From Actinomycetota bacterium (GTDB lineage Bacteria; Actinomycetota; UBA4738; HRBIN12): a DNA stretch of 64,000 nt. A program made the position numbers and the translations under genes. The DNA lies in the NCBI GenBank assembly GCA_041287635.1, contig JBGGNG010000149.1, forward strand, positions 3,424-67,423, read 5' to 3'. The notes under the pieces were generated by a model, which was not told where the DNA came from, did no database searches, and worked only from the letters and a program-made list of their open reading frames with translations. The first letter of the stretch is position 1, and each line of letters opens with the position of its first letter. Positions 9,736 through 46,175 of the stretch are shown in pieces.

Positions 9736-10697
9736 CGAACAAGAACAAGCGCTCGAAGCCTCGCGACCGCGACGACGGGCACCGTTCCGCGCCGCCGGCC
9801 TCGCGCGGGGCCGAGCCAGCGCCGCGGAGAGGGCTGCTCGACTCGCTCTTCTCGCCGCGGGTCGGCTCGACCTCGATGCCCAGCATCCGCACGTCGGCCG
9901 CTCGAGGCCTCGCCGTCGTCGCGGGCACCCCGGTGCTCGCGGTCGGGGCCGTCGCGCTCGTCGTCCTCGAATGGCTCGCGGCGCTGGCACTCGGGTACGA
10001 GGGCCCGTTCGCGCTCTTCGTCAACGCCCTGGGGTTGGCGCCGGTCGGCACGAGCTTCGACGCCACGCTCTCCACGTCGCTGTTCGGCCTACAGGGAGGG
10101 TTCTTCGCGATCCTCGGGTTCGTGGCGTTCCGGGCGATGGTGCAGGCGCTCCTCGTCGCGGTGATCGTGGAGGTCCTGCGCTCGGCCCCTCTCGGTCGGT
10201 GGACTCTCATCCGGGCGCTCAGGACCCTGCCGGCGGCACTGGCGGTCAACATCGCCGGCATCGGATTGCTGACCCTGGCCAGTCTGCTGGGGCCGCTGCT
10301 CGGTCCGGCGTTCGGGCTCCTGATCCAGATGGCCGCGCTGGTGGGCGGCGTCTACGTGCTGAGCTTCGCACCGGTGATCGCGGCCGACGAGGGGCGCCGC
10401 CTCTCCGACGCGATGAGCCGGTCGGTGCGGGCGGCCCGCATGCCGGGATCGGGCAACCTGACGCTCGCCGCGATCTACGTCGTCGCCTCGATCGCGATCC
10501 TGGTCGTGCCGGGCAAGCCCGGGTCCGATCTCGGGGTGAACCCGACCGTCTCGGCGTGGGTGATGGTGCTGGTCGCCAACCTCCTCCACGTGGTGATGCA
10601 GGCTATGGTGGCCTTCCGATACCTGTCGGTTGCCGACGAAGTGCCCGACGCCGCTCCGAGACGGCAGGCGGCCCCTCGCGCGCGGTCCCGTGGCTGA
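9732..10697 (+). CDS. Polytopic membrane protein of unknown function
   Basis: GTG 9732 overlaps the upstream stop (GTGA). Basic N-terminus followed by about 6 hydrophobic segments. No recognisable motif. Confidence 0.6.
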   Translation: MTNKNKRSKPRDRDDGHRSAPPASRGAEPAPRRGLLDSLFSPRVGSTSMPSIRTSAARGLAVVAGTPVLAVGAVALVVLEWLAALALGYEGPFALFVNALGLAPVGTSFDATLSTSLFGLQGGFFAILGFVAFRAMVQALLVAVIVEVLRSAPLGRWTLIRALRTLPAALAVNIAGIGLLTLASLLGPLLGPAFGLLIQMAALVGGVYVLSFAPVIAADEGRRLSDAMSRSVRAARMPGSGNLTLAAIYVVASIAILVVPGKPGSDLGVNPTVSAWVMVLVANLLHVVMQAMVAFRYLSVADEVPDAAPRRQAAPRARSRG

Positions 10698-10869
10698 TCG
10701 CCGGGGGCAGCGGTCGACGGGGGAACGCCGCTGCTAGACTTCTCGCGCCGGCGCATCTGCGCCGAGCTCACACGTTCGGGGACCGCATCGCCGGGGTCCC
10801 GCGCCTCACGAAGGCGGGCCGGCGACGGGACGATCCGAGCGGAGGAACTGAAACCGAGAAGGAGGCCCC

Positions 10870-11892
10870 GTGCCTGTCGTGACCAGGCGGGAGCTCCTCG
10901 AAGCGGGCGTGCACTTCGGCCACCAGACCCGTCGGTGGAACCCGAAGATGCAGCGATTCCTCTACGGGGAGCGTTCCGGCATCTACATCATCGACCTCGA
11001 GAAGTCCCTCGCGGGGCTCGAGGAGACCCACGAGTTCGTGCAGGGCCTCGGCCGTCGGCGCGGCATCGTGCTGTTCATCGGGACGAAGAAGCAGGCCCAA
11101 GAAGTCGTGCAGGACCATGCGACCCGTATCGGCATGCCGTACGTGAACCACCGATGGCTCGGCGGCATGCTCACGAACTTCACGACCATCTCCAAGCGGC
11201 TGCTCCGCCTGCGCGAGCTGCACGAGATGGAGCGCACCGGTGCGCTCGACTACCTCCCCAAGAAGGAAGCGATCAGGTTGCGCCACGAGCGCGACAAGCT
11301 GACGCGCAACCTGGGGGGCATCCAAGACCTCGAGCGCCTGCCCGACGCCGTCTTCGTGATCGACACGAAGAAGGAGCACATCGCCGTCAACGAGGCCAGG
11401 AAGCTGGGCATCCCCGTGATCGCGATCGTCGACACGAACTGCGACCCCGACGAGGTCGATTACGCGATCCCGGGCAACGACGACGCGATCCGCGCCGTGA
11501 GCCTCGTGGCCCGCGTGGTCGCCGACGCTTTGGCCGAGGGCTACGGCATGGCGAAAGACGAGGACGTCGAGCGCGTCACCACCCGCTCGGCCGTCCCGGC
11601 GGCCACCGGACCGCGCTCGACGGCCGCCCCGGCGAGGGTGGAGGAGTCCGAGACACCGTCCGCCGAGGACGCCGCCGCGATCGCCGCGAGCACGGTCTTC
11701 GAGCCCGACGCGCCCGAGGCCCCTGCAACCGAGGGGGCTGCCGAGCCGATGGCCGAGGGATCGACCGAGGTCCTCGAAGACGCCTCGGCGGCCGAGACCG
11801 TCGTGGTGACCGATCCGGTCGAGGCCGTGGCATCGGCCGTCGCGGACACGCCCGAGGAGCCGGCCGCGGAGATGCCCGAGGAGCAGGCATGA
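10870..11892 (+). CDS. rpsB: 30S ribosomal protein S2 with about 100-aa acidic C-terminal extension
   Basis: [19 protein letters not shown]... is canonical S2. GAAGGAGG lies upstream. The tail is rich in E/A/P/T. Confidence 0.95.
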
Positions 11893-34041: not shown

Positions 34042-34398
34042 ATGAGCCAAGGAGCGCGCATGCAGCGGGTCGGCGAGGAGTTCCGCGAGATCCTCGCCGA
34101 GGAGATCCCGAAGTTGAAGGACCCTCGCGTGGGGTTCGTGACCGTCGTCGGCGTGAAGGTCTCACCCGACCTCCGTCACGCGTGGGTCGCGTACACGTCG
34201 ATGGGCGACGACAAGGCGAAGGCCGGCACGCGTGCAGCCCTGCGTTCGGCTCGAGCGCATCTGCGGGCCGTGATCGGGCGGCAGGTGCGCCTCAAGTACC
34301 TGCCGGAGCTCGACTTCGAGGAAGACACGACGTACGAGCAGGGGCAGCGGATCGACGAGTTGATCGCCGGTCTGCGTCGCCTGGAGGACGATCTATGA
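34042..34398 (+). CDS. rbfA: Ribosome-binding factor A
   Basis: 118 aa. RVGEEFREILAEEI...DPRVGFVTV. Confidence 0.9.
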   Translation: MSQGARMQRVGEEFREILAEEIPKLKDPRVGFVTVVGVKVSPDLRHAWVAYTSMGDDKAKAGTRAALRSARAHLRAVIGRQVRLKYLPELDFEEDTTYEQGQRIDELIAGLRRLEDDL

Positions 34399-35375
34399 CA
34401 CCCGATTTCGCGCGGGCCGCCCAGGTGCTCGCCGACGCGACCGAGGTCGCGCTCGCGTGTCACGTGAATCCCGATGCGGACGCCCTCGGGTCGATGCTGG
34501 GCCTCGCCGCCTTCCTGCGATCGCGAGGGGTCGAGACCGTCTGCTCCTACCCGAACGAGCCGCTCGAACCACCACGGTGGGCCGAGCTGTTGCCCGGGGC
34601 CGACCGGTTGGTGCCGGCGAAGGCGTTCCCGAAGGAGCCCGCGGTGATGGTCACGTGCGACTGCGCCGCGTTCGACCGGCTCGGACAGCTGGGGCACGTC
34701 GCGAACCGGGCGGGTGAGGTGATCTGGATCGACCACCATCGGTCGAACGAGGGCCTCGGCTCGATCCCTCTGAACGATCCGCAGGCCTCGTCGACCTGCG
34801 AGATGGTCTTCCGGCTGATCGAAACGATGGGTGGCGAGATGCCCGACGAGACGGCGGTCTGCCTGTACGCGGGCCTCGTCACCGACACGGGCAAGTTCCA
34901 GTACGAGGCCACCACCCCCGAGACGTTGCGCATCGCTGCCCGGCTCCGAGAACACCCCTTCGATCACGCCCGGCTTGTGCAGGCCCTCTACGAGGACAAT
35001 CCCCCCACCTACCTGACGCTCGTCGGCGTGGCGTTGGGGCGGCTCGAGCACGTCGCAGACGCCGACCTGGTCTGGACCTACCTCACCCAGGCCGACCTGC
35101 TGGACGCGGGCGTGCACCCGGCCGAGACCGACGACCTGATCGACGTGATCCGAACGGCGCGCGATGTCGACGTGGCTGCGATCGTGAAGCAACAGAAGGA
35201 CGGCCGCTTCAAGGTGAGCGTGCGTTCGCGAGGCGACCACGATCTCGCGAGGGTCGCAGCTGCCTTCGGCGGCGGCGGGCACCGGCTCGCCGCCGGGTAC
35301 ACCTCGGCCCATGGGCCGGCCGAGACCGTCGAACGCCTCGCAAAGGCCCTCCGGGGCGAGCCCGTGACCGCGTGA
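34395..35375 (+). CDS. nrnA: DHH-family oligoribonuclease/pAp phosphatase NrnA
   Basis: ATGA overlap with rbfA. CHVNPDADALGS, IDHHRSN, GGGH motifs. The upstream part of track ORF 34182 is a shadow of rbfA. Confidence 0.85.
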   Translation: MTPDFARAAQVLADATEVALACHVNPDADALGSMLGLAAFLRSRGVETVCSYPNEPLEPPRWAELLPGADRLVPAKAFPKEPAVMVTCDCAAFDRLGQLGHVANRAGEVIWIDHHRSNEGLGSIPLNDPQASSTCEMVFRLIETMGGEMPDETAVCLYAGLVTDTGKFQYEATTPETLRIAARLREHPFDHARLVQALYEDNPPTYLTLVGVALGRLEHVADADLVWTYLTQADLLDAGVHPAETDDLIDVIRTARDVDVAAIVKQQKDGRFKVSVRSRGDHDLARVAAAFGGGGHRLAAGYTSAHGPAETVERLAKALRGEPVTA

Positions 35376-36244
35376 GTACTGGCCCCGCCACGCCCGGGCG
35401 CGGACCCGAGGGGTTGGTGCTCGTCGACAAGCCGGGTGGCATCACGTCGCACGACGCCGTGGCGAAGGTTCGCCGGGCGCTCGGCACCAAGAAGGTGGGC
35501 CATGCGGGCACCCTCGACCCGATGGCGACCGGACTGCTCGTCATGGGTGTCGGCAGGGCCACACGGCTCCTGCGTTTCCTCGGGGAGCTGCCGAAGACGT
35601 ACGAGGCCACGATGCGCCTCGGCGTCGAGACCACGACCCTCGATTCCGACGGAGAGGTGGTCCGGTCGGCGCCGGTCGCGGTCGACGACGACCGACTGGC
35701 GGAGGTCGTCGGAGCGCTCGTCGGGGAGTCGATGCAGCGGCCGCCCGCGTTCTCGGCCGTCAAGGTGGGGGGTCGCAAGCTCTACGAAGCCGCCCGGAAG
35801 GGGGAGGTGCTCGAGGCGCCCCCCCGCCCGATCATGGTCGACCGCTTCGAGGTGCTCGCTCGTCGCCACGACGACGTCGACGTGGTGATCACCTGCGGCG
35901 GCGGCACGTACGTCCGGGCGCTCGCGGCCGACGTGGGGACGGCTCTCGGGTGTGGGGCTCACCTCAGGGCGCTGCGACGGACCGCGATCGGGCCGTTCGA
36001 GGTCGCCATCGCGACCGACCCGGACGACCCAGGATCACCGCTGCCGATCGAGCGTACGGTCTCCCATCTGCCTTCCGTGCGGCTCGATTCCGAGGAAGCC
36101 GTCGCCGCGGGGCACGGCCGCGTGCTCGCGCCCGCAGGGATCGACGGTCCGTACGCGATCCTCTCCCCCGACGAGCGGCTGGTCGGGGTCTTCCAGGACG
36201 AGGGTCCCCGGTCGAAGCCGCTGGTCGTGTTGGCAGCCGACTGA
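35372..36244 (+). CDS. truB: tRNA pseudouridine-55 synthase
   Basis: GHAGTLDPMATGLL catalytic motif. 290 aa. Confidence 0.9.
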   Translation: MSTGPATPGRGPEGLVLVDKPGGITSHDAVAKVRRALGTKKVGHAGTLDPMATGLLVMGVGRATRLLRFLGELPKTYEATMRLGVETTTLDSDGEVVRSAPVAVDDDRLAEVVGALVGESMQRPPAFSAVKVGGRKLYEAARKGEVLEAPPRPIMVDRFEVLARRHDDVDVVITCGGGTYVRALAADVGTALGCGAHLRALRRTAIGPFEVAIATDPDDPGSPLPIERTVSHLPSVRLDSEEAVAAGHGRVLAPAGIDGPYAILSPDERLVGVFQDEGPRSKPLVVLAAD

Positions 36245-36270: not shown

Positions 36271-37926
36271 TCACTCCAAGCCTGCGAAGAGCGAGTCGAT
36301 CGCCATGGCGACGAGGACGAGGCCGCCGACCACGACGGAGGCCGTGAGGGCGATCCGTTGCAGATCCCAGGTCTGGATCGAGACCGGCTCGTGCGGGGGT
36401 GCGAGCCCCCGGAACCGATCCATGATCGGCCGAGGATCCTCCTTCAGCCGGCCGGAGAGCTCGGTCGGCACCGCCATGCCGACGGCGCAGGCGAAGCCCT
36501 CGGCGATCTCGTCGGGGGTGAACAGGGCGGTGGCGCGCTCGTAGACGCGGTCGGGGTCGGTCTGCAGGGCGAGGGTGAGCATCATGTTCGCGAGATCGAC
36601 CGCCTGCCGCCAGGGCGTCGGACGCACCTCGAGGCCCGAGACGTCGACCAGCTGCAGGTGCCCGCGTTGCACCAGTAGGTTCGCCGGCTTGATGTCGCGG
36701 TGGGCGACACCGATGTCCCAGAACTGGCGGATCAGCCGCAGGCCCTCGTCGATCACGACGTCGTCGATATCGGAGTCGCCGAGGTTCTTCGAGTCCTCGA
36801 AGAACTCCGTCACGAGCATGTACTCGCGGTTCGGCGTGAGCTCGACGATGCCCCACGTACGAGCGACCGTGACGTCGTTCATCGCGAGGTATCGCAATGC
36901 GTAGTCCTCGTACTCGGCCAGCCTGCGTACCGATCCGAAGGGGGTCTCGTCCTCGAGCTTGCCGTAGAGGATCGTGCGCCCCACGCGATACCAGCGGTCG
37001 GCGCGCACGTGGCTGGTCGCGTAGATCTTGCCGAAGACGCGCGATCCGTCGGCGAGCGTCATGCGCAGCGGAGACGATCCCCCCGAGCCCTCGAGACCGA
37101 ACGGTTCCACCTCGGTGACCTCGAGCCCGACCTGGTCGGCCATGGCATGCTTCACGGCCTCGGCTCGCGCCCCTCCGAGGTCGAGGTGCGCGGCATTCCC
37201 GCCACGCTGATAGCTCACGGGGAACGACTCGTCGGGAACGAACCATCGGAACAACGTCTCGGACAGCACCCAGCTGAGGAGCGCCGCGTAGGCGACGTTC
37301 GACGGGTAGTCCGCCGCGAGATACAGCCGCGAGAGCGCCACCAGGACCACCACGATCCACGCCGCGGTCATCGCCCGCTTCCTCAGCCGGCCGGCCGGGG
37401 CCAGCACGAACGGCATCGCGAACACGGTGATCGCGAAGGCGGTCATCGGCCACGACGGGAACCGGAAGTCGGTCGCGTCGATCAGGGGAGCGACGTCGCC
37501 GGGGGGGCGCTGCACATCGAGGAAGGTCAGGACCAGCCAGTCGCTGACCACGAACGTCGCGAGCGCCACGACCAGGTGGCGGAACCGCTTCGTTACGATC
37601 AACACGCCCGCCAGCACGACCCGAAGGAGCTGGACGGCACCGAACGCGGTGAGCATGGCGATCGACGTGGCGATGTCGGTGAGGACCGGGGTACGGATGT
37701 CCTCGAAGGCGCGGAGGACCGCATCGCCGAACGCGTGCGGTTGGTCGGAGTTGGCGACCCAGACCTCGATCGCGACGCCGAGCAGCACCACGCCCACCAG
37801 CGCCCACCACCAACGGGTCGACCCCGATGGGCGCGGGAGAGGTGGTGGCTCGCCCGAGGGCCGACGCTGGCGATGCACGCGACCGGCGGTCGGAGGGGCG
37901 ATCGAGGTCGTGGCGGGCGGCTCCAT
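36271..37926 (-). CDS. Membrane fusion protein: degenerate PAP2-like TM domain + WaaP/Kdo-like kinase domain + C-terminal TM helix (paralogue 1)
   Basis: PAP2-like blocks DVQRPP / FPSWP / SRLYLAADYPSN, with both catalytic His missing. Kinase blocks GLEGSGGSS, VFGKIY, AHRDIKPANLLV, LVDVSG, WRQAVDLANMM. Start at ATG 37926 aligns with the paralogue; the track start 38028 would overlap the divergent gene. Confidence 0.7.
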   Translation of the reverse strand: MEPPATTSIAPPTAGRVHRQRRPSGEPPPLPRPSGSTRWWWALVGVVLLGVAIEVWVANSDQPHAFGDAVLRAFEDIRTPVLTDIATSIAMLTAFGAVQLLRVVLAGVLIVTKRFRHLVVALATFVVSDWLVLTFLDVQRPPGDVAPLIDATDFRFPSWPMTAFAITVFAMPFVLAPAGRLRKRAMTAAWIVVVLVALSRLYLAADYPSNVAYAALLSWVLSETLFRWFVPDESFPVSYQRGGNAAHLDLGGARAEAVKHAMADQVGLEVTEVEPFGLEGSGGSSPLRMTLADGSRVFGKIYATSHVRADRWYRVGRTILYGKLEDETPFGSVRRLAEYEDYALRYLAMNDVTVARTWGIVELTPNREYMLVTEFFEDSKNLGDSDIDDVVIDEGLRLIRQFWDIGVAHRDIKPANLLVQRGHLQLVDVSGLEVRPTPWRQAVDLANMMLTLALQTDPDRVYERATALFTPDEIAEGFACAVGMAVPTELSGRLKEDPRPIMDRFRGLAPPHEPVSIQTWDLQRIALTASVVVGGLVLVAMAIDSLFAGLE

Positions 37927-38015
37927 CCGGCCGAGCCTACCGGAGCGAGGCTGGGCCAGCCGTCCGCGCACGCCATGTCGAGGTCCTTCCTCGTGGAGCA
38001 GGCTATCCTCACCCG

Positions 38016-39131
38016 ATGACCGAGCCACCTGCTGCCGTCGTGGAGGACCCGACGGCCGACCCCGCCGCGAAGAAGCACTCGCCGACCCGCCGGATCGTCT
38101 CGGGGGTCATCTCCCTCCTCATCGTCGGCGGCATCTTCGTCTTCGCGATCCCGAAGGTGGCCGACTACTCCGCGGTCTGGAAGGCGTTCGAGTCGCTCAC
38201 GGGCCTCGAGCTGCTCTCCCTGTTCGCCGCCACGGTCTTCAACCTGTTCACCTACTGGTGGGCGAACATGGCGGCGCTGCCCGGGCTGAAGCTGAGTCGG
38301 GCGGCGGTGCTCACCCAGACGACCACCTCGGTCGCGAACACGTTGCCGGGCGGCGGCGCGATCGCCGTCGGCCTCACGTACACGATCTTGAAGTCGTGGG
38401 GGTTCACGGGCACCGACGTCGCGCTGTACGTCGGCGTGACCGGCATCTGGAACATCTTCGTTAAGCTCGCGCTCCCGGTGATCTCACTCGTCTTCCTCGT
38501 GATCGCCGGCGAGAGTGGATCTGCGTACGTGGTCGCGGCCATCGTCGGCGTGATCGTGCTGGCGATCGCGGTGGGCCTGCTCTCGGCGCTCTTCGTGAGC
38601 GAGCGGTTCGCCCGCCGCATCGGTGATGGGTTCGGCCGGGTCCTCTCGTTCTTCATGAAGCTGTTCCGCAAGCCCCCGAGGACCGACACGGGAGATCGAG
38701 CCGTACAGTTCCGGGCCGACACGATCGGGCTGGTGGAGCGTCGGTGGGTGCGTCTGAGCCTCACGACGATCCTGAGCCAGGTCGCCCTCTACTTCGTGCT
38801 GCTGCTCTCCCTGCGGAACATGGGGGTGTCCGAGCAAGAGGTGAGCGCCGCCCAGGTGTTCGCGGTGTTCTCGTTCAGCCGCTTGCTCTCGGCTGTGCCG
38901 ATCACGCCGGGTGGGGTCGGGGTGATCGACCTCGGCTACATCGGTGGCCTCGCGGCCGCCGCGCCGGATGGTGAGAAGGCGGCGATCGTCGCCGCCGTAC
39001 TGATGTTCCGCGCACTGACCTACGGCATCCAGATACCGCTCGGTGCGTTCACCTACCTGATCTGGAAGGGGAAGAAGGATTGGCGGCGCGAGTCGCCGAC
39101 CGACGTCGAGTCGGAACCCTCCCCCGCCTAG
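38016..39131 (+). CDS. UPF0104 / lysyl-PG-synthase-TM (MprF flippase-like) membrane protein, stand-alone
   Basis: 371 aa, about 8 TM segments. C-terminal motif VPITPGGVGVIDLGYIGGL resembles the PGG.G..E signature of this family. Confidence 0.65.
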   Translation: MTEPPAAVVEDPTADPAAKKHSPTRRIVSGVISLLIVGGIFVFAIPKVADYSAVWKAFESLTGLELLSLFAATVFNLFTYWWANMAALPGLKLSRAAVLTQTTTSVANTLPGGGAIAVGLTYTILKSWGFTGTDVALYVGVTGIWNIFVKLALPVISLVFLVIAGESGSAYVVAAIVGVIVLAIAVGLLSALFVSERFARRIGDGFGRVLSFFMKLFRKPPRTDTGDRAVQFRADTIGLVERRWVRLSLTTILSQVALYFVLLLSLRNMGVSEQEVSAAQVFAVFSFSRLLSAVPITPGGVGVIDLGYIGGLAAAAPDGEKAAIVAAVLMFRALTYGIQIPLGAFTYLIWKGKKDWRRESPTDVESEPSPA

Positions 39132-39145
39132 GTCGCCCGTCCTGG

Positions 39146-39859
39146 TCAGGACAGTCGAGGATCGAGAGGGTCTCCGGGGGGGGCCTGAGGCCGAGCGATC
39201 ACCCCGCGAGCACTGAGCGCGTTCGTCACCTCTGTCACCAGGGCGGCCGACCCGAGCGCGATGCCGGTGCCGAGCAGCACCCCGGTCAACACGTCGGAGA
39301 ACCAGTGAGCCGACAGGTACACGCGCGAGAGCGCCATCACGTACGTGAACCCGATCGCGAGTAGCTCCCACTCCCGACGCCGTGGCCCGGGGGGGAAGAA
39401 CACGAGCACCAAGGCGACGGCCAGCGCGGCGCCGGCGACGGCATGCCCCGACGGGAAGGAGAACCCGTTCGTCTCCACGAGGGGGTTCGGGGGACGCCCG
39501 CGGTGGAAGAAGATCTTCAGCCACGTGAGCAGGGCTTCGGACGCGACCCAGACCAGCACGAAGGTGGAGAGGGCAACCCAGCGCCGGCGGAGGAGCAGCC
39601 ACCCCGCGACCAGGATCCTCAGGGGGATCGTGACGAGGCCGCCGCCGACGATGCTCAGGAACGTGAAGAGGCCTGTCAGCGTGCCGACCCGCACGTCGTC
39701 GGCCCAGCGCTCGACCGTGGCGTCGAACTCGCCGATGAACGGCACCGTGGTCAGCGGCGCCAGCTCCTCGGGATGACGACCCACGGCGACGAGCATGAAC
39801 ACGAGACACGCGAGCAGCCCCAGGGAGAACCTGAAGGCGCGCCGGTGATCGGTCAGCAT
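39146..39859 (-). CDS. PAP2 family lipid-phosphate phosphatase (motifs intact)
   Basis: KIFFHRGRP, PSGH and SRVYLSAHWFSD make the complete C1-C2-C3 acid-phosphatase signature. 237 aa, multi-TM. Confidence 0.8.
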   Translation of the reverse strand: MLTDHRRAFRFSLGLLACLVFMLVAVGRHPEELAPLTTVPFIGEFDATVERWADDVRVGTLTGLFTFLSIVGGGLVTIPLRILVAGWLLLRRRWVALSTFVLVWVASEALLTWLKIFFHRGRPPNPLVETNGFSFPSGHAVAGAALAVALVLVFFPPGPRRREWELLAIGFTYVMALSRVYLSAHWFSDVLTGVLLGTGIALGSAALVTEVTNALSARGVIARPQAPPGDPLDPRLS

Positions 39860-39869
39860 CGTGGTGAGC

Positions 39870-40436
39870 CTATCCGGCGCACGGTGGCGCTCCGGCCCCG
39901 CAGACCGTGAGGTCGAGCTCGCGGCGGACCTCGGCGACGATCGCCGCCCGGGGCAGCGTCGACACCGCGCGGTCGGCCTCGATCACGAGGGCGGGCTCCG
40001 ACCCCCCGGCGAACCGATAGCGGGAGACGATGCACCCTCCGTCGAACACGAGCATCCGCGATCCGACGAACGGATCGAGGCTCTCGGGCAACTGGAACGT
40101 GCGCATGCCGATCTCGTCCGGCGCCGGGGGAACCTCCACAGCTTGGCTGACGTCGCAGCGAGCCATCAGCTCGACCTCGACGGCATGGACCCCGGCCCGA
40201 TCGTGGTCGAGCCAGAGCGTGGTCCCGCTGTCGCGCACGAGCGACCCGGCGAACCGCCACCCGATCGGCAGCTCCGCGATGCAAGGGATCCGAGTGGCCG
40301 AGGGCACCGACTGTGCCTCCAGGACGAGGATCGAGCCATCGAGATGGGCACAGACCGGCTGTTGGGGGTTGTCCGCCGAACACGCCACGGTCACGGACAT
40401 CAGCGTGATCGAGAGCGCGATCGCGGGCCACCTCAT
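39870..40436 (-). CDS. Cys-rich lipoprotein of unknown function
   Basis: MRWPAIALSITLMSVTVAC lipobox. The ATG overlaps the upstream stop (ATGA at 40433-40436). 8 Cys in the mature part. Confidence 0.55.
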   Translation of the reverse strand: MRWPAIALSITLMSVTVACSADNPQQPVCAHLDGSILVLEAQSVPSATRIPCIAELPIGWRFAGSLVRDSGTTLWLDHDRAGVHAVEVELMARCDVSQAVEVPPAPDEIGMRTFQLPESLDPFVGSRMLVFDGGCIVSRYRFAGGSEPALVIEADRAVSTLPRAAIVAEVRRELDLTVCGAGAPPCAG

Positions 40437-42121
40437 GCAAATACCGCCCAGTTCGATGCGATCAGCCCGAGCACGATGAACGCCACGAGCACCACCCCGA
40501 TCGTGAGCAGGATGCGCCGGACGCTCCACCGCTGGATCTTCATCGGCGCACGCTCGGGAGCGAGCGCCTGGAACTCGGTCAAGAGGTCGCGGCCGTCCTC
40601 CTTCATCATCGTGCGCAGTTGGGTGGGGCTCGCCACGCCTCGCGTCGCCGAGAAGGCCTCCGCGATCTCGTCGGGGGAGAACAGGCGCAAGGCGTGCTCG
40701 TACACGCGCTGTGCGTCGGAGCGCAGGCCGAGGACCATCATCATGTTCGCGAGGTCGACGGCCTGACGCCAGGGGGAGGGGCGCACCTGCACGAAGAAGA
40801 CGTCGATCAGTTTCAGGTCTCCGTCGAGCACCATGAGGTTGGCTGGCTTGATGTCACGGTGGGCCAGGCCCTCGTCCCACATCTCGCGCACGAGCTGCAG
40901 CCCTTGATCGATCACGCGGTCGTCGATCTCCGCCTCGCCGATCTCCACGGCGCCGTCGAAGAACTCCATCACGATCATGTATTCGCGTTCGGGGGTGATC
41001 TCGACGACGCCGTAAGGGCGCGGCACGGGCAGGTCGAGATCCTCCATCAGCCTGAGGGTGTAGTCCTCGTACTCCACGAACCGGCGCACGGTCTGGAAGG
41101 GCGACTCGTCCTCGAGCTTGCCGTACAGGATCGTGCGTCCGAGCTTGTACCAGCGGTCGGCTCGCACGTGGCTCTTCGCGTACAGCTTCGCGAACAGCAC
41201 CCGCTCCGTGCCGGATCCCTCCTCGCGCACCCGCAGCCGCAACGGCGTCGAGCCGCCCGATCCTTCCAACCCCACGGGTTGTACGTCGAGGACGCGGTAT
41301 CCGAGCTGGTCGCGGACGGCGGTGGCGATGGCCTCGCCCCGTCGCCCACCGACGTCCAGATGCGCCGCCTTCCCGCGCCGATAGGTCACGGGGAAGACGT
41401 CGTTGGGCGCGAACCAGCGGAACGCCGTGAGCCCGATCGCGACGCCGAGCACGGCGCCGAAGATCGCATCGGTCGGGTGATCGATCGCCAGGTACACCCG
41501 GGCGAGGCCGACGACGACGAGCAGACCCCCGGTCGCCCATTTCGCGGCATCCCGCCAGCGCCCGTGTGGGATCAACGAAAACGTGATGCCGACCAGCGTG
41601 ACCGCGAGAGCGGCGAGTCCCCTCGAGGGCATCGAGAAGTCCTGCCACGGTCCGATCGTGACCACGTCGAGCGGCCGAGGCCGGTGGATCCCCAGCGTGA
41701 GTCCGTACGTCACGAAAGCCTCGACGATCAAGGCACCGAGGAACACCAGCAGGTGCCGCCATCGGCGGACGACGATCAAGGTCGCGATCGTTCCCCATCG
41801 CAGGAAGCGGATGATCCACCGTGAGGTGAGGAGCGCGATCGTCTCCATGACGTCGGTGAGGGGAGCGGTGCGCCACGATGCGAACCACCGGAGGACCGCC
41901 GTGTCGATCCGATGGAAGAGGCGTTCCGACGGCTCGAACAAGACGACACCGATCACCGTGGCCACGAAGTAGGCGGCCATGAACAGCCAGAACTTCCCGC
42001 TCCGCCCGAGCTCCCGCGGCAGGGGCGGCGCCTCGCCGGAGGGGCGCCGTCGGACGTCGGGGCCGAGCAGGCGGCGCCGGCGCTCGTGCGTGGTCTCGTT
42101 CGTCGGCTCGGCGGTGTCCAT
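40433..42121 (-). CDS. Membrane fusion protein: degenerate PAP2-like TM domain + WaaP/Kdo-like kinase domain + C-terminal TM helix (paralogue 2)
   Basis: 562 aa. PAP2-like GIHRPRP / MPSRG / ARVYLAIDHPTD. Kinase GLEGSGGST, LFAKLY, AHRDIKPANLMV, LIDVFF, WRQAVDLANMM. Purine-rich RBS GAGGGAAGAGAG upstream. Confidence 0.7.
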   Translation of the reverse strand: MDTAEPTNETTHERRRRLLGPDVRRRPSGEAPPLPRELGRSGKFWLFMAAYFVATVIGVVLFEPSERLFHRIDTAVLRWFASWRTAPLTDVMETIALLTSRWIIRFLRWGTIATLIVVRRWRHLLVFLGALIVEAFVTYGLTLGIHRPRPLDVVTIGPWQDFSMPSRGLAALAVTLVGITFSLIPHGRWRDAAKWATGGLLVVVGLARVYLAIDHPTDAIFGAVLGVAIGLTAFRWFAPNDVFPVTYRRGKAAHLDVGGRRGEAIATAVRDQLGYRVLDVQPVGLEGSGGSTPLRLRVREEGSGTERVLFAKLYAKSHVRADRWYKLGRTILYGKLEDESPFQTVRRFVEYEDYTLRLMEDLDLPVPRPYGVVEITPEREYMIVMEFFDGAVEIGEAEIDDRVIDQGLQLVREMWDEGLAHRDIKPANLMVLDGDLKLIDVFFVQVRPSPWRQAVDLANMMMVLGLRSDAQRVYEHALRLFSPDEIAEAFSATRGVASPTQLRTMMKEDGRDLLTEFQALAPERAPMKIQRWSVRRILLTIGVVLVAFIVLGLIASNWAVFA

Positions 42122-42152
42122 CTCGTCGCTCTCTTCCCTCGTTCGCGCGATG

Positions 42153-43067
42153 CTACTCGGCGGTGTTCCCGAGGTGGTGATCGTCCAGCCATCTGGCCGC
42201 AGCGACCGCCGGAGCGACGCCCGAGCTGACGAGGGCGTTGAGCGCTCGGAGCTCGGTCGTGGTCAGCTCGGCCGATACCGCGTCGATCGCCTCTGTCAGT
42301 CCGGGACCGAAGCGCTCGATAGCGTCACGTCGCACGAGCGGCGTCACGTTCTCCGCGGGCTGTAGTCGTCGATCGTCCCGCAGCAGCACGAGCCCATGCT
42401 GGGCGAGGCTGCCGTCGCTCGTGAAGAGCACCCCGACGTCCACCGTTCCCTGCTGGACCGCCGCTGCCGTGACCGGTCCACCCGCGTCGAGGGGCAGGAA
42501 CGACGCGAATTCCAGCCCGTAGGTCTTGGCGAAGCCCAGCAGGCAGAGTTCGCGCTCCGGGCATTCAGGGGGACCACCGATCGTCATCGCGGACGCGACG
42601 CTCCGCAGGTCGCTCACGCTGCGCAGCCCATGCTCCGTCGCGGTCCGGGTCGTGACCACGAGCCCGTTCCTGCTCTGCGCGGGAGCTGGCTCGAGCGCTT
42701 CGATACCGCGCGAGCCGAGCGAGACTCGCAGCGTCGCCAGCGACGAGTCTGGGTCAACCGAAGGCTGGCCGCCCAGGAAGGCGACGGCGCTCCCCGCGTA
42801 GTCGGGCACGACCTCGATCAATCCACGCTCGAGCGCCGGCAGCACCACCTCGCGCGTCCCGACGCGACGGGCGTGTCGAACCTCGAAGCCCTGCGAACGC
42901 AGTGCGCCGGCGTAGACCTCGGCGAGCGTCTCGCTCTCGTCGAAGTCGAACGAGGCGATCGTGATCGCGTCGTCGTCGAGCGTGTGGTCCACGGGTGCGC
43001 TCGACCCACACGCGGCGATCGACGCCGCGATCACGATCAGGAGCACGCCCAAAGCCTTCCCGCCCAT
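42153..43067 (-). CDS. OpuAC-family (glycine betaine/choline-type) substrate-binding lipoprotein, orphan
   Basis: Lipobox LIVIAASIAAC. ITIASFDFDESETLAEVYAGALRSQGFEV...GTREVVLPALERGLIEVVPDYAGS matches the osmoprotectant SBP signature. No permease or ATPase gene in the window. Confidence 0.75.
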   Translation of the reverse strand: MGGKALGVLLIVIAASIAACGSSAPVDHTLDDDAITIASFDFDESETLAEVYAGALRSQGFEVRHARRVGTREVVLPALERGLIEVVPDYAGSAVAFLGGQPSVDPDSSLATLRVSLGSRGIEALEPAPAQSRNGLVVTTRTATEHGLRSVSDLRSVASAMTIGGPPECPERELCLLGFAKTYGLEFASFLPLDAGGPVTAAAVQQGTVDVGVLFTSDGSLAQHGLVLLRDDRRLQPAENVTPLVRRDAIERFGPGLTEAIDAVSAELTTTELRALNALVSSGVAPAVAAARWLDDHHLGNTAE

Positions 43068-43153: not shown

Positions 43154-44098
43154 ATGCGGATCGTGCACGGGTTCGATGCGTTGCCGTTGCCCGAGAAGGC
43201 TTCCGTCGTGACGGTCGGGTTCTTCGACGGCGTCCACCTCGGACACCGATCGGTGATCGATACGACCGTCTCCCGGGCACGCGATCGCGGGATCCCGTCG
43301 ATCGGGATCACGTTCGACCGTCATCCTCGAGAGATTCTCACGCCGGGCAGCGAGCCTCGCCTACTGACCACGGTGGATCGGAAAGCGGGCCTCATCGAAG
43401 CGAGCGGGCTCGACGTGCTGGTCGTGCTCGAGTTCACCCAGGCGTTCTCGCGGATCCCGGCCGAGGACTTCGTTCGGACCGTGCTCGTCCAAGGCGTCCA
43501 CGCACGTCATGCAGCGATGGGTGCGAACTTCACGTTCGGCTTCAAGGCCGAGGGCACGGTGGCGACGCTGCCCGAGATGGGCGCCCCGTACGGCCTGACC
43601 GCGGAAGGGGTGCCCTTGTTCGAGCTCGGCGGCCGGACGGTGTCGTCGTCGTCGATCCGTGACGCCCTCGCTGGGGGCGATCTGACGTGGCCGGCGAAGG
43701 CGCTCGGGCGGCGCTTCGTGCTCGACGGCGAGGTGACCTCGGGGCACGGCCGGGGGAAGGGGCTCGGCTACCCGACCGCCAACCTGCGCACGTGGCCTCG
43801 GCTGCTCCTGCCCGGACAGGGGATCTACGCGGGCGTGGCTGAACTCCATGGGCGGCGCTACAGGACCGCGATCGATGTCGGCACGAACCCCACGTTCGGC
43901 GTCGAACCCTTGCACGTGGAGGCGTTCCTGCTCGACTTCGAGGGCGACGAGCTCCAAGGCGAGCCGCTCGCGATCGAGTTCTGGGAACGCCTGCGCGACG
44001 AGATCCGCTACGACTCGATCGACGAGCTGATCGCGGCGATCGCCGACGACGTCGACCGCACGCGGGCCATCGTGCCCGACGATCAAATCGGCCGATGA
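43154..44098 (+). CDS. ribF: Bifunctional riboflavin kinase / FMN adenylyltransferase
   Basis: VVTVGFFDGVHLGHRSV, GHGRGKGLGYPTANL. 314 aa from ATG 43154. Confidence 0.9.
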   Translation: MRIVHGFDALPLPEKASVVTVGFFDGVHLGHRSVIDTTVSRARDRGIPSIGITFDRHPREILTPGSEPRLLTTVDRKAGLIEASGLDVLVVLEFTQAFSRIPAEDFVRTVLVQGVHARHAAMGANFTFGFKAEGTVATLPEMGAPYGLTAEGVPLFELGGRTVSSSSIRDALAGGDLTWPAKALGRRFVLDGEVTSGHGRGKGLGYPTANLRTWPRLLLPGQGIYAGVAELHGRRYRTAIDVGTNPTFGVEPLHVEAFLLDFEGDELQGEPLAIEFWERLRDEIRYDSIDELIAAIADDVDRTRAIVPDDQIGR

Positions 44099-44760
44099 CC
44101 GGCTTCTGCGCGGCGACCAGCCCGACCCTCCCGCAACAGTCGCCACGCGAGACGCGTCGTGAACACCAACGGGATCGTGATGCCGATCCGCTGCACGATG
44201 CCGTTCCCCGGCCGCACGACGTCGCGGGCGAAATACGACATCACGCCGCTCGACGCGATCGACGCTCCCGCGGCCGGCAGGGCCATGTCCTGCAAGCCGG
44301 GCTCGATGCGCAAGCGGGCAGCGAGCGCGAGGAGCCCCGCCGTCGCGCAGATATGGCCACCGACCGAGGCGAGATCGTGGGCGTCGTTCACCCATGACTG
44401 GCGTTCCAGGGGTTCGCCCGGCATCGGCCAGTTCGACATCCGGTCGCGTCGCATGAGACCGGCGGCGCAGATCGCGATCCCCGACGCACCGAGCAGGGCG
44501 GGTCCCGGCCCGCCGTCGCCGAGGCGGCGCTCGAGCGAGGCGGCGAAGCCGATCGTGCCGAGGCCGAGTGCCCAGAAGCCGGCGGTCATCACGCCCGGGA
44601 CCCGGGCGTCCGGCGCGGCCAGCCCGCTGATGTGCTCGTTCGCGAGCGCGTAGCCGGGCTGACGCCGGCTCGCCCCGATCCACGCGGTCGTGAACAGGAC
44701 GGGGCCGACCAGGCCACACGACTGGAGGAGGCGGTCACCGAGCGAAGGCATCGTCGCCAT
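44083..44760 (-). CDS. Hypothetical polytopic membrane protein (DUF998-like?)
   Basis: About 225 aa from ATG 44760, with 5-6 hydrophobic segments. The upstream part of the track ORF is Arg/Pro-rich and non-coding-like. The family assignment is only a guess. Confidence 0.5.
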   Translation of the reverse strand: MATMPSLGDRLLQSCGLVGPVLFTTAWIGASRRQPGYALANEHISGLAAPDARVPGVMTAGFWALGLGTIGFAASLERRLGDGGPGPALLGASGIAICAAGLMRRDRMSNWPMPGEPLERQSWVNDAHDLASVGGHICATAGLLALAARLRIEPGLQDMALPAAGASIASSGVMSYFARDVVRPGNGIVQRIGITIPLVFTTRLAWRLLREGRAGRRAEAGHRPI

Positions 44761-44819: not shown

Positions 44820-46175
44820 GTGCGGGCACGTGACATGGTGATGCGCTCGATCGCTCGGCTCGCCGCCCTGGGGTGGTTCCGCTCGGTCGAGACGGGCGGG
44901 GTCGAGCGGGTCCCGTTGCGAGGGCCGACGCTCGTGGTCGCCAACCACGACGGGGGGTTCGTCGATCCCGTCCTCCTCGCCTCGACGCTGCCGCGGTTTC
45001 CTCGATTCCTTGCGATGGCCGGTCTCTGGCGGACCCCGGCTCGGCCGTTCCTGTGGCTCGCCGGAGCGATCCCGGTGGTCCGCGCATCCGACGGCACGAC
45101 GTCGGAGAACTCCCGGGCGTTCGCCGCCTGCCACGACGTCCTGTCCAAGCAGGGCATCGTGGCGATCTTCCCTGAGGGGCGGGCGAGCGACGAGGTGCGG
45201 CTGCTGCCCGTGAAGACCGGGGCCGCCCGGATCGCTCTCGGCTCGCATGCCGCCGGCGCCGAAGGTCTTCTCATCGTGCCGGTCGGGCTGATCTACGAGG
45301 ACAAGTCGACAGCGCGTGCCCGCGTCTACGTGCGCGTCGGCGTTCCGATCGATCTCGACGCCGAGCTTCCGTCGCTCGTGTCGACCGGAGGCGCTGCCGA
45401 CGAGGACGATCGGCACACGGTCGCGGCGCTCACTGCGACGATCCGAGAACGCCTCGCCGCGGTCGCCTTGGACTTCGAGAGCGCGGCGCAGATGTCGTCG
45501 CTCGGGCTCGCCGCCACGATCGCCCTGCGACCCATCGATGCCGACCCCGGCTGGCGACCCACGTTCTCGGCTCGCGAGGATCTCACGACCCGGCTGGGCG
45601 ACGCGCCCGAGGTACAGCAGTCCGCGGTCCGCGTCGCCGCCGACGCCTATCGGGCCGGGTTGGAAGCCAACGCGATCACCGACGCCGCCGTCGCGACCGA
45701 CTCGCGACGGCACCGACGGGTGCATCTCGCGGGAGTGGCGGTCGCGGTGCTGGCCGCTGCGCCGGCCGTGGTGGGTGTGCTGGTCAACGCCGTGCCGGGC
45801 ACACTCACCTGGCTCGTAGGACGGCGATCGATGGCTCCAGTGACACGGGCGACCGTGAAGTTCCTGGTCGCGTTCGTCTGCTTCCCGCTGACCTGGCTCG
45901 TCGTCCGCTACCTCCCGCCGGTGCGCGATTCGGCGCACCCGTGGTTGATCGCGACGCTGATCGGCCCCGTCTGTGGTCTCGCGGCTGCGTGGTTCGTGGC
46001 GCGCCTGCAGCGCGCCCGACGGGCCCGCGTCAACCTGCGCCGACTCGCCGGGGCGGGTGCCTCCCTCGACGACCTCCGTGCCCGGCGTGACCGCGTCGTG
46101 GAGGCGGTTGGCGTCGTCACGGCCGAAGATCGGTTCGGTCAGGCCGGCGTGCCCGCTGGTAGGCTTGGCGACTGA
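44820..46175 (+). CDS. PlsC-family lysophospholipid acyltransferase with C-terminal membrane extension
   Basis: HX4D motif [22 protein letters not shown]. About 200 extra C-terminal residues with two TM segments. Confidence 0.75.

Follow-up and report, generated by a model that had tools for sequence, protein, structure and literature searches.

The characterised systems closest to the locus described here, a set of membrane and lipid-related genes lying between truB and ribF in a 64,000-nucleotide (nt) stretch of actinobacterial DNA (the window, in whose coordinates positions are given), appear to be architectural analogues, namely the MviN pseudokinase protein and the GlnH-GlnX-PknG system. 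MviN/MurJ (Rv3910) of Mycobacterium tuberculosis, which Gee et al. are said to have studied in 2012, reportedly carries a pseudokinase domain. Like the core protein of our locus, a PAP2-kinase fusion that we call fusE, this actinobacterial protein combines a polytopic lipid-handling domain with a cytoplasmic kinase fold, a transmembrane (TM) helix and an extracytoplasmic domain, and it links envelope lipid traffic to Ser/Thr phosphosignalling, as our module may also do. However, the two belong to different protein families, and while the lipid II flippase of MviN is active and its kinase dead, the PAP2 domain of fusE appears dead and its kinase intact; the MviN partners FhaA and PknB are also not found in this locus. 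In Corynebacterium and Mycobacterium, GlnH-GlnX-PknG comprises a transporter-less binding lipoprotein, a membrane protein and a Ser/Thr kinase encoded in one operon. Its likeness to our module lies in an orphan binding lipoprotein used as an extracytoplasmic ligand sensor, a role that would be shared. Unlike fusE, PknG is soluble and belongs to the canonical Hanks kinases, with added TPR and rubredoxin domains (for its context, see PMC8546545). GlnX has four TM helices but no PAP2 fold, GlnH binds amino acids and is not of the OpuAC type, and the system has no PAP2 or flippase partners. The nearest published idea is the 'PAP2-PIK-like module' of Segetibacter (Bacteroidota), which similarly couples an uncharacterised kinase-fold protein to a neighbouring PAP2 phosphatase and a secreted protein of unknown function. 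We rejected it as a counterpart, since it is a different family with a soluble PI-kinase-like protein, includes no fusion, pseudo-PAP2, UPF0104 or OpuAC component, and has a neighbourhood limited to one genus. Literature searches and the bacterial Ser/Thr kinase atlas yielded no PAP2-kinase fusion, gene set or function of this kind, in agreement with an earlier note on this DNA, which had proposed a six-gene membrane and lipid module unrelated to translation and had matched it to no characterised system. To our knowledge, no PAP2 protein with a cytoplasmic kinase, a further TM helix and an outer domain has been described. The novelty here lies in three components of a receptor-kinase/envelope-lipid module, namely a kinase family outside the known classes, a pseudo-PAP2 domain and a Cys-rich domain not described before.

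We see in the module a good candidate for a new system by which the envelope senses or modifies lipids. The reading that we tentatively favour, and to which we give somewhat less than an even chance, is that fusE is a receptor-type membrane kinase sensing outer-leaflet lipid phosphate and/or a ligand. Its outer-face parts, i.e. a dead PAP2 pocket, a Cys-rich domain and a binding protein, would detect a soluble ligand, a lipid phosphate of the outer leaflet (e.g. a (pyro)phosphate of the polyprenyl or glycerolipid type), or both, and would switch the cytoplasmic kinase toward autophosphorylation, perhaps at the Ser/Thr of an N-terminal RRP(S/T)GE motif, and/or toward protein targets. A separate active PAP2 phosphatase and a flippase-like protein would either determine how much of the sensed lipid is present or react to its amount, creating a homeostatic envelope loop. 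We favour this reading because the sensory parts, like the active site of the separate PAP2 phosphatase, are outside, the kinase is inside and the sole universal partner of the kinase is the outer domain, and also because of fusions to receiver (REC)/LuxR and STAND modules and an HRDxKxxN catalytic loop of the Ser/Thr protein-kinase type. Furthermore, the core pair of kinase and outer domain also occurs without PAP2, flippase or binding protein, which fits a sensor better than a single step in a fixed lipid pathway.

The gene map was drawn from a table of open reading frames together with Pfam and NCBIfam profile searches of the window proteins, and it contains the following features:

truB, 35372-36244, flanking gene (TruB_N, E 9.5e-50)
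fusA, 36271-37926, minus strand, 551 amino acids (aa), paralogue of fusE
divergent intergenic region between fusA and the flippase-like gene, 37927-38015, 89 nt, presumed promoter site
flippase-like UPF0104/PplT gene, 38016-39131, plus strand, 371 aa (PF03706), convergent on the minus-strand operon
PAP2 phosphatase gene, 39146-39859, minus strand (PF01569, E 8.3e-18), last gene of the operon
Cys-rich lipoprotein gene, 39870-40436, minus strand, lipobox Cys19, no Pfam or NCBIfam match
fusE, core kinase fusion, 40433-42121, minus strand (PAP2 E 1.8e-10, RIO1 E 6.5e-6, Pkinase E 2e-5)
OpuAC-type binding lipoprotein gene, 42153-43067, minus strand (PF04069, E 1.1e-41), first gene of the operon
ribF, start at 43154, flanking gene (NF004160, 315 bits)

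The OpuAC-type gene and fusE are separated by 31 nt, in which a purine-rich ribosome-binding site (GAGGGAAGAGAG) precedes the ATG of fusE. The fusE and lipoprotein frames overlap at ATGA, an arrangement of translational coupling, only 10 nt separate the lipoprotein and PAP2 genes, and the PAP2 and flippase-like genes converge across 14 nt. Coordinates, strands, spacings and domains of the six genes are all as the earlier note had claimed, with the divergent gap measured at 89 nt. The two fusions also align over their full length as it had stated (48% identity end to end, E 2e-168), and the shared strings it had quoted are all present. GC content is even across the region at 0.67-0.72, and therefore recent acquisition is not indicated.

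From its N-terminus, fusE consists of a disordered cytoplasmic tail with the RRP(S/T)GE-PPLP motif, a six-TM PAP2-fold domain (residues ~44-237), a cytoplasmic kinase-like domain (~255-520) and a last TM helix (537-555). The membrane domain is a PAP2 superfamily homologue (PF01569, E 1.8e-10, 41 bits versus a cut-off of 27.2), and a family profile compared with the PDB matched Bacillus subtilis PgpB/YodM (5jki, E 7e-11) and LpxE (6ebu, E 8e-5), both of which share the 6-TM PAP2 fold with fusE. The first 43 residues are Arg-rich and precede six hydrophobic helices, a ~300-residue kinase region with basic flanks and the last helix. Since the segment following this helix exists elsewhere as an exported, disulfide-rich lipoprotein, the C-terminus must be outside and the kinase inside. 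The overall topology follows from the PgpB homology, the positive-inside rule and the exported lipoprotein counterpart of the C-terminal domain, and it agrees with the earlier placement of the kinase inside and of the PAP2 loops, the lipoproteins and the binding protein outside.

A census of catalytic motifs was made by aligning the fused PAP2 domains to the intact PAP2 protein of the window, with residues counted over the representatives aligned at each site (~50-60). The separate PAP2 protein (39146-39859) is an ordinary member of its superfamily (64.8 bits versus 27.2), and the patterns C1 KxxxxxxRP, C2 PSGH and C3 SRxxxxxHxxxD are all intact in it, as KIFFHRGRP, PSGH and SRVYLSAHWFSD. Judging from these motifs, it is a catalytically intact membrane phosphatase, albeit one that fits no specific equivalog (SepP, PgpB and UppP scored 24-37 bits versus cut-offs of 229-261). 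In the fused domain, the C1 Lys is a T in fusE and variable in the family, the 'GH' of C2 is RG in fusE and WP in fusA, with Pro at the His position in 31/54 representatives, and the nucleophilic His of C3 is Asp in 36/55 and never His. Retained are R149 (44/50), P150 (49/50), R208 (34/55) and the Pro-Ser of C2. Because the Lys and both His are lost family-wide, the fused PAP2 domain is a pseudo-phosphatase, although it may have kept the ability to bind phosphate head groups in the outer leaflet. The earlier note had assigned PAP2 dephosphorylation to the module, and this assignment survives for the separate PAP2 protein but not for the fused domain, a pseudo-enzyme lacking the catalytic Lys and both His. 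In fusA the PAP2 domain is still more degenerate (C2 = PSWP, C3 = SRLYLAADYPSN) and its PF01569 score of 22.1 bits falls under the 27.2 cut-off; the kinase motifs of fusA are kept and it has no partner lipoprotein of its own. Among vertebrates, the PLPPR/PRG proteins are catalytically dead relatives of the PAP2 enzymes. They resemble the fused domain in having lost the catalytic residues while keeping the fold, which by analogy would suggest lipid-phosphate binding without hydrolysis. It is conceivable, if rather doubtful, that the dead PAP2 domain itself acts as a membrane-spanning receptor that recognises a lipid (pyro)phosphate of the outer leaflet, for instance a polyprenyl carrier lipid, and that together with the Cys-rich domain and the orphan OpuAC protein it directly switches the attached kinase and controls the PAP2 phosphatase and UPF0104 flippase. 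If true, this would constitute a new bacterial transmembrane signalling class, a 'pseudo-phosphatase receptor kinase' that reports on the envelope lipid cycle, and such receptors would be present in hundreds of soil actinobacterial species.

The kinase-like domain of the family has kept its catalytic residues. K312, E337, H421-R422-D423, K425, N428 and D440 are each conserved in ≥57 of ~60 representatives, and both the glycine loop G284-x-x-G287-S-G-G-S291 and E337/D338/E339 are nearly invariant across ~60 diverse representatives; thus, the kinase is predicted to be active. All of the Hanks-type core motifs are found (Gly-rich loop, beta3 Lys, alphaC Glu, HRDxKxxN and metal Asp). A full-length Hanks domain is not, as the Pkinase match is confined to the catalytic-loop region (positions 93-141 of the 263 in the profile) and scores 24.6 bits versus 31.7. 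An AlphaFold2 model of fusE (pLDDT 79) confirmed the kinase-like fold, its distant neighbours in Foldseek being eukaryotic protein kinases (ePK), RIOK1, Rio2 and Bud32 (E ~1e-6, TM-score ~0.45), while weak Pfam matches among 50 relatives went to Pkinase (38), RIO1 (30), APH (21) and Kdo (20). The domain shares with RIO, Bud32 and Kdo-WaaP proteins a minimal fold without activation segment, as well as weak profile and fold similarity, but their signature motifs are absent, its catalytic loop is the ePK-type HRDxKxxN and it is embedded in a membrane protein. With matches spread over five Pfam families and none of them dominant, the domain appears to represent an unclassified kinase-like family. 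This bears upon the domain expectations of the earlier note, of which PF01569, PF03706 and PF04069 were found, while PF06293 gave nothing at E 0.01 and PF00069 stayed under threshold. Its proposal of a WaaP/Kdo-family kinase was not borne out: neither fusE nor fusA matches PF06293 at E 0.01, NF002475 reaches only 15.3 bits versus 142, and the weak matches of the relatives, which include PF06293 in 20/50 (best E 1.1e-7), are spread over several families.

The same comparisons bear upon a second explanation, in which a RIO/Bud32-like ATPase would serve as a nucleotide-driven switch or scaffold that regulates the PAP2 phosphatase and flippase by contact, without phosphorylation of a substrate. 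RIO1 is the sole kinase-type Pfam family over its gathering score in fusE (26.3 versus 22), RIOK1, Rio2 and Bud32 are among the best Foldseek matches, NCBI labels relatives as 'RIO1 family regulatory kinase/ATPase', and the substrate-binding lobe is missing. RIO proteins are recognised by an STGKEA nucleotide loop, HxDLSxxN, IDxxQ and an N-terminal RIO helix. However, the corresponding fusE loops are GSGGSTP, HRDIKPAN and IDVFF, so that the RIO signatures are absent; in addition, the RIO1 match is partial (43-148 of 187) and fusA has none, and the Ser/Thr of RRP(S/T)GE is conserved in 41/46 relatives, which suggests a phospho-acceptor. We consider a contact-based ATPase switch improbable. The N-terminal motif, in full RRP(S/T)GE-PPLP(R/K), is otherwise near-invariant and is a plausible phospho-acceptor or docking site, judging from its conservation. 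As a pseudosubstrate it is structurally unsupported, with residues 1-37 disordered in the AlphaFold2 model.

The outer domain emerged from a comparison of the window lipoprotein with longer members of the kinase family. The lipoprotein has its lipobox Cys19 and six further invariant Cys, and it found no sequence match in Pfam, NCBIfam or the PDB. Its AlphaFold2 model (pLDDT 88.5) likewise had no Foldseek match in the PDB under E 1e-3, with faint likeness to PsbP, RseB and DcrB (TM-score ~0.3). It does align to residues 570-723 of a 727-aa kinase relative (P0121; 48% identity, E 5e-40), i.e. after the last TM helix, and a homologous C-terminal extension occurs in ~38 of the best 150 family representatives. 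Fused forms of full length have no signal peptide or lipobox, which are replaced by the kinase's own TM helix. Given this replacement and the presence of fused forms in several divergent clusters from independent assemblies, the fusions are real rather than frameshift artefacts. By homology, the window lipoprotein is a detached extracytoplasmic domain of the kinase. An even longer relative of 924 aa (P0145), recovered on two independent contigs, reads intact PAP2-RRPSGE motif-pseudo-PAP2-kinase-TM-Cys-rich domain, and its first domain is 44% identical to the window PAP2 protein at 39146-39859 (E 2e-38). Therefore, three genes of the window are encoded as one polypeptide elsewhere. There is also a 319-aa fragment (P0250) in which an intact PAP2 domain (KGIYDRARP, PSGH, SRAYLGAHWLSD) leads straight into the kinase without a pseudo-PAP2 domain; it may be a deletion or recombination variant, or a chimera. 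A further fragment (P0187) that joins the binding protein to the kinase was taken as a gene-calling artefact, since its topology would be impossible. A metagenome scan for distant relatives gave mostly short contigs with varied neighbours, and confirmed the kinase-lipoprotein fusion only.

Other fusions connect the kinase to signalling proteins. Some relatives have an N-terminal REC domain or a complete REC+LuxR regulator fused to the kinase, and others a STAND NTPase that contains TPR repeats. A second fusion copy stands divergent beside a ~690-aa membrane HisKA_3/HATPase_c histidine kinase in three genomes (L048, 3163-5244; L049, 7007-9085; L050, 1495-3543). An AAA_16+LuxR regulator is encoded near the first of these copies, and a GAF-HisKA_3 kinase accompanies the second. 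LuxR/MalT-type regulators also adjoin kinase loci, including the two alternative operons P0480 and P0513 described below.

We scanned one genome per GTDB species and found at least 563 genomes with a relative of the fusion, the best 80 loci of which were analysed. Partner counts refer to the 52 species-level genomes/loci containing both truB and ribF. Within these complete intervals, fusE and the lipoprotein gene are present in 52/52, PAP2 in 51/52, the OpuAC binding protein in 49/52, the flippase-like gene in 44/52 and fusA in 12/52. The conserved unit is thus four to five genes rather than the six proposed in the earlier note, and the presence of fusA in only 12 of the 52 intervals marks it as a recent, lineage-specific duplicate. 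Searches by tblastn with the window proteins recovered the order ribF / sbp-fusE-lipo-pap2 / flip / (fusA) / truB-DHH nearly throughout, down to 62% identity. In one locus (L109), a PPK2 (polyphosphate kinase 2) gene at 10120-10932 is inserted between the flippase-like gene and truB. The fusion itself has >8000 close homologues, all from uncultured Actinomycetota, whose annotations do not go beyond 'PAP2 family protein', 'RIO1 family regulatory kinase/ATPase' or 'Bud32', and an exhaustive search of 1.84 billion cluster representatives returned 700 clusters (50% identity) at E ≤1e-30. The records of relatives are labelled Actinomycetota or Actinomycetes, with single ones labelled Cryptosporangiaceae (P0481), Solirubrobacterales and Armatimonadota; so far, the family comes only from uncultured, mostly soil Actinomycetota.

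As conservation between truB and ribF alone might be frozen synteny, alternative loci were sought. In the first (P0480), beside an Lhr helicase gene, the order is PAP2-UPF0104-OpuAC-kinase (with the lipoprotein domain fused)-PAP2-PAP2, and the genes are co-directional with overlapping frames. The second (P0513) reads MalT/LuxR-OpuAC-kinase (fused form)-ABC1/UbiB-UPF0104-PAP2-[Pkinase+UPF0104]. Hence, the four families re-associate in two unrelated loci and in different orders. These loci bear upon the possibility that the genes are merely chance neighbours in a variable slot. The content of the truB-ribF interval differs among Actinomycetota, and within our set the binding protein is missing in 3/52 and the flippase in 8/52, while an extra gene such as PPK2 appears in other intervals. 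Against this, the order is kept with overlapping or near-abutting frames in 52 genomes down to 62% identity, the four families come together again at two unrelated loci, and three of the parts are joined by fusions. A chance association is accordingly very improbable and has effectively been refuted, and the module proposed in the earlier note holds, the kinase fusion being recurrently linked to UPF0104, PAP2 and the binding protein. With regard to the P0513 operon (JGI sample 3300041967), its members include an ABC1/UbiB atypical kinase, an 800-aa UPF0104 protein and an 805-aa Pkinase+UPF0104 protein; in another locus (L091), a gene for an ABC1 protein directly follows the fused kinase.

The kinase and its overlapping lipoprotein gene are also found alone, with no nearby PAP2, flippase or binding protein. 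Such pairs lie between glmS and acpS, beside transglutaminase genes and in other contexts, with lipoprotein homology at E 8e-18 and 6e-17, and the pair seems to settle repeatedly beside essential, cell-wall-related genes. One example from another subfamily (L107, 5089-15661) reads glmS / kinase-lipoprotein pair / acpS-nnr-alr-tsaE-tsaB. The kinase and the Cys-rich outer domain together make up the universal core, to which PAP2, UPF0104 and OpuAC proteins are frequent accessories.

The OpuAC-type accessory is a clear family member (143.6 bits versus 21.2) with the lipobox AASIAAC-GSS and Cys20. Its nearest structures are binders of betaine, choline, carnitine and ergothioneine (5uve, E 3e-21; 6eyg), and it scores 79.6 bits versus 400 for the OsmF equivalog. 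The equivalents of the OpuCC tyrosine cage are Y90, N134, F215 and E239, so that half of the four positions are aromatic. In 68 orthologues, the residues Y90, N134 and F215 do not vary, while position 239 is E (64) or D (4); the pocket is thus conserved but non-canonical, rather than a four-residue aromatic cage. No ABC permease or ATPase genes were found in the truB-ribF interval or in the two other locus types (P0480, P0513), and from this lack of a cognate permease/ATPase in three locus types we conclude that the OpuAC protein is an orphan. With its conserved pocket, it resembles sensory binding proteins, an analogy that would suit the receptor reading.

The flippase-like protein matches the whole of the PF03706 domain (profile 2-302 of 302, E 3e-19, 70 bits versus 33.4). 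It has no aminoacyl-phosphatidylglycerol synthase domain, all 371 aa being TM domain, and NF033480 reached 39.8 bits versus 600. The product of 38016-39131 is, by these matches, a stand-alone UPF0104/PplT protein and a putative flippase, as flippase activity is putative for every stand-alone member. Its gene is co-operonic with the kinase in the two other locus types (P0480, P0513). Stand-alone UPF0104 proteins, such as GpgF of Pseudomonas aeruginosa, have been proposed as flippases for head-group-modified lipids (PMC12713373), and a survey of PplT proteins described kinase-PplT fusions in Actinobacteria (bioRxiv 10.1101/2022.03.11.483950). In contrast to the MprF/UPF0104 systems, the partners here are PAP2 and an atypical kinase, with no aminoacyl-phosphatidylglycerol synthase or glycosyltransferase.

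Such partners could also belong to a lipid kinase cycle of the kind proposed in the earlier note, in which an inner-leaflet lipid or lipid-linked sugar would be phosphorylated, flipped outward by UPF0104 and dephosphorylated by the active PAP2, while the binding protein and Cys-rich domain would bind the head group or gate the cycle. We regard this as the main rival and a serious one, although less likely than not. The recurrent linkage to an active PAP2 (51/52) and to UPF0104 (44/52) is what such a cycle would predict, as are the other loci with ABC1/UbiB and a Pkinase-UPF0104 fusion, and the intact PAP2 domain fused to the kinase in P0145. The kinase is anchored in the membrane at both ends, it has neither an activation loop nor a protein-substrate lobe, and ~40% of its relatives show a weak likeness to Kdo/WaaP and APH proteins. 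There is also precedent for a lipid-modifying enzyme paired with UPF0104 in MprF, in GpgSDF (PMC12713373) and in the kinase-PplT fusions of Actinobacteria (10.1101/2022.03.11.483950). On the other hand, the phosphate-binding remnant retained by the fused PAP2 domain lies at the outer face of the membrane, whereas the kinase site is at the inner face, and it therefore cannot offer the kinase a substrate. The one partner to which the kinase is always coupled is the outer Cys-rich domain, the kinase-lipoprotein pair occurs alone, the HRDxKxxN catalytic loop has the form of a Ser/Thr protein kinase, and the REC/LuxR and STAND-TPR fusions and histidine-kinase pairing would be unusual for a metabolic lipid kinase. 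A kinase plus Cys-rich core that occurs alone and has REC/STAND wiring is no less compatible with a sensor kinase than with a lipid kinase.

Several points nonetheless weigh against a receptor kinase. The recurrent partners of the kinase are lipid enzymes or transporters (PAP2, UPF0104, ABC1/UbiB), and in other systems stand-alone UPF0104 proteins are found together with cytoplasmic enzymes acting on lipid head groups, which they modify (PMC12713373; bioRxiv 10.1101/2022.03.11.483950). Neither an FHA protein nor a response regulator, nor any other cognate protein substrate, is encoded in the module of the window. The kinase has neither an activation segment nor a substrate-binding lobe, with 16 residues from D440 to an alphaF-like D456 and no APE, and families of small-molecule and sugar kinases were matched equally weakly (APH 21/50, Kdo 20/50). 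AlphaFold2 left the N-terminal motif undocked, as residues 1-37 have pLDDT <50 and are predicted to be disordered. It should also be noted that we infer the substrate, the ligand and phosphorylation itself from sequence.

The kinase fusion belongs to a large and entirely uncharacterised family, with members in at least 563 species-level genomes and 700 clusters (50% identity, E ≤1e-30), and the module unites PAP2 lipid phosphatases, MprF-type flippase domains and Ser/Thr kinase signalling, which are usually studied separately. If fusE is a sensor, a Gram-positive envelope would report its lipid-phosphate status to the cytoplasm via a pseudo-enzyme; if it is a lipid kinase, a phosphorylated envelope lipid not described so far would be implied, and stand-alone UPF0104 proteins would gain a substrate. 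In both cases, the fusions and the compact operon provide a defined five-gene construct that is testable in a heterologous host.

A role in anti-phage defence was rejected: PADLOC only matched the catalytic loops of the two kinases to PD-T4-6 (E ~1e-4), which is generic, and the other four module proteins were without any defence-model match. A scan with the sigma-70 consensus, which is uninformative for a high-GC actinobacterium, gave no promoter match, including at 37927-38015, and an Rfam search of the whole window found no RNA family. Three terminator-like matches were detected, all inside genes, versus 1.4 expected by chance, and they are likewise uninformative. The housekeeping flanks form the usual cluster, nusA-infB-(rbfA)-DHH/DHHA1-truB ... 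ribF ... pnp. Here, the DHH/DHHA1 (NrnA-like) gene (34392-35375, plus strand) lies between rbfA and truB, overlapping the start of truB with its 3' end, and this position is kept in nearly all related loci. On the other side, a gene for a DUF998 membrane protein (44083-44757, minus strand, E 8e-19) directly follows ribF, and one for a PlsC-type acyltransferase with a long C-terminal membrane region (44820-46175, plus strand, PF01553, E 3e-18) also precedes pnp. Since ribF is directly followed by rpsO and pnp in the related locus L109, the DUF998 and PlsC genes constitute a second lipid-related insertion in the same housekeeping cluster.

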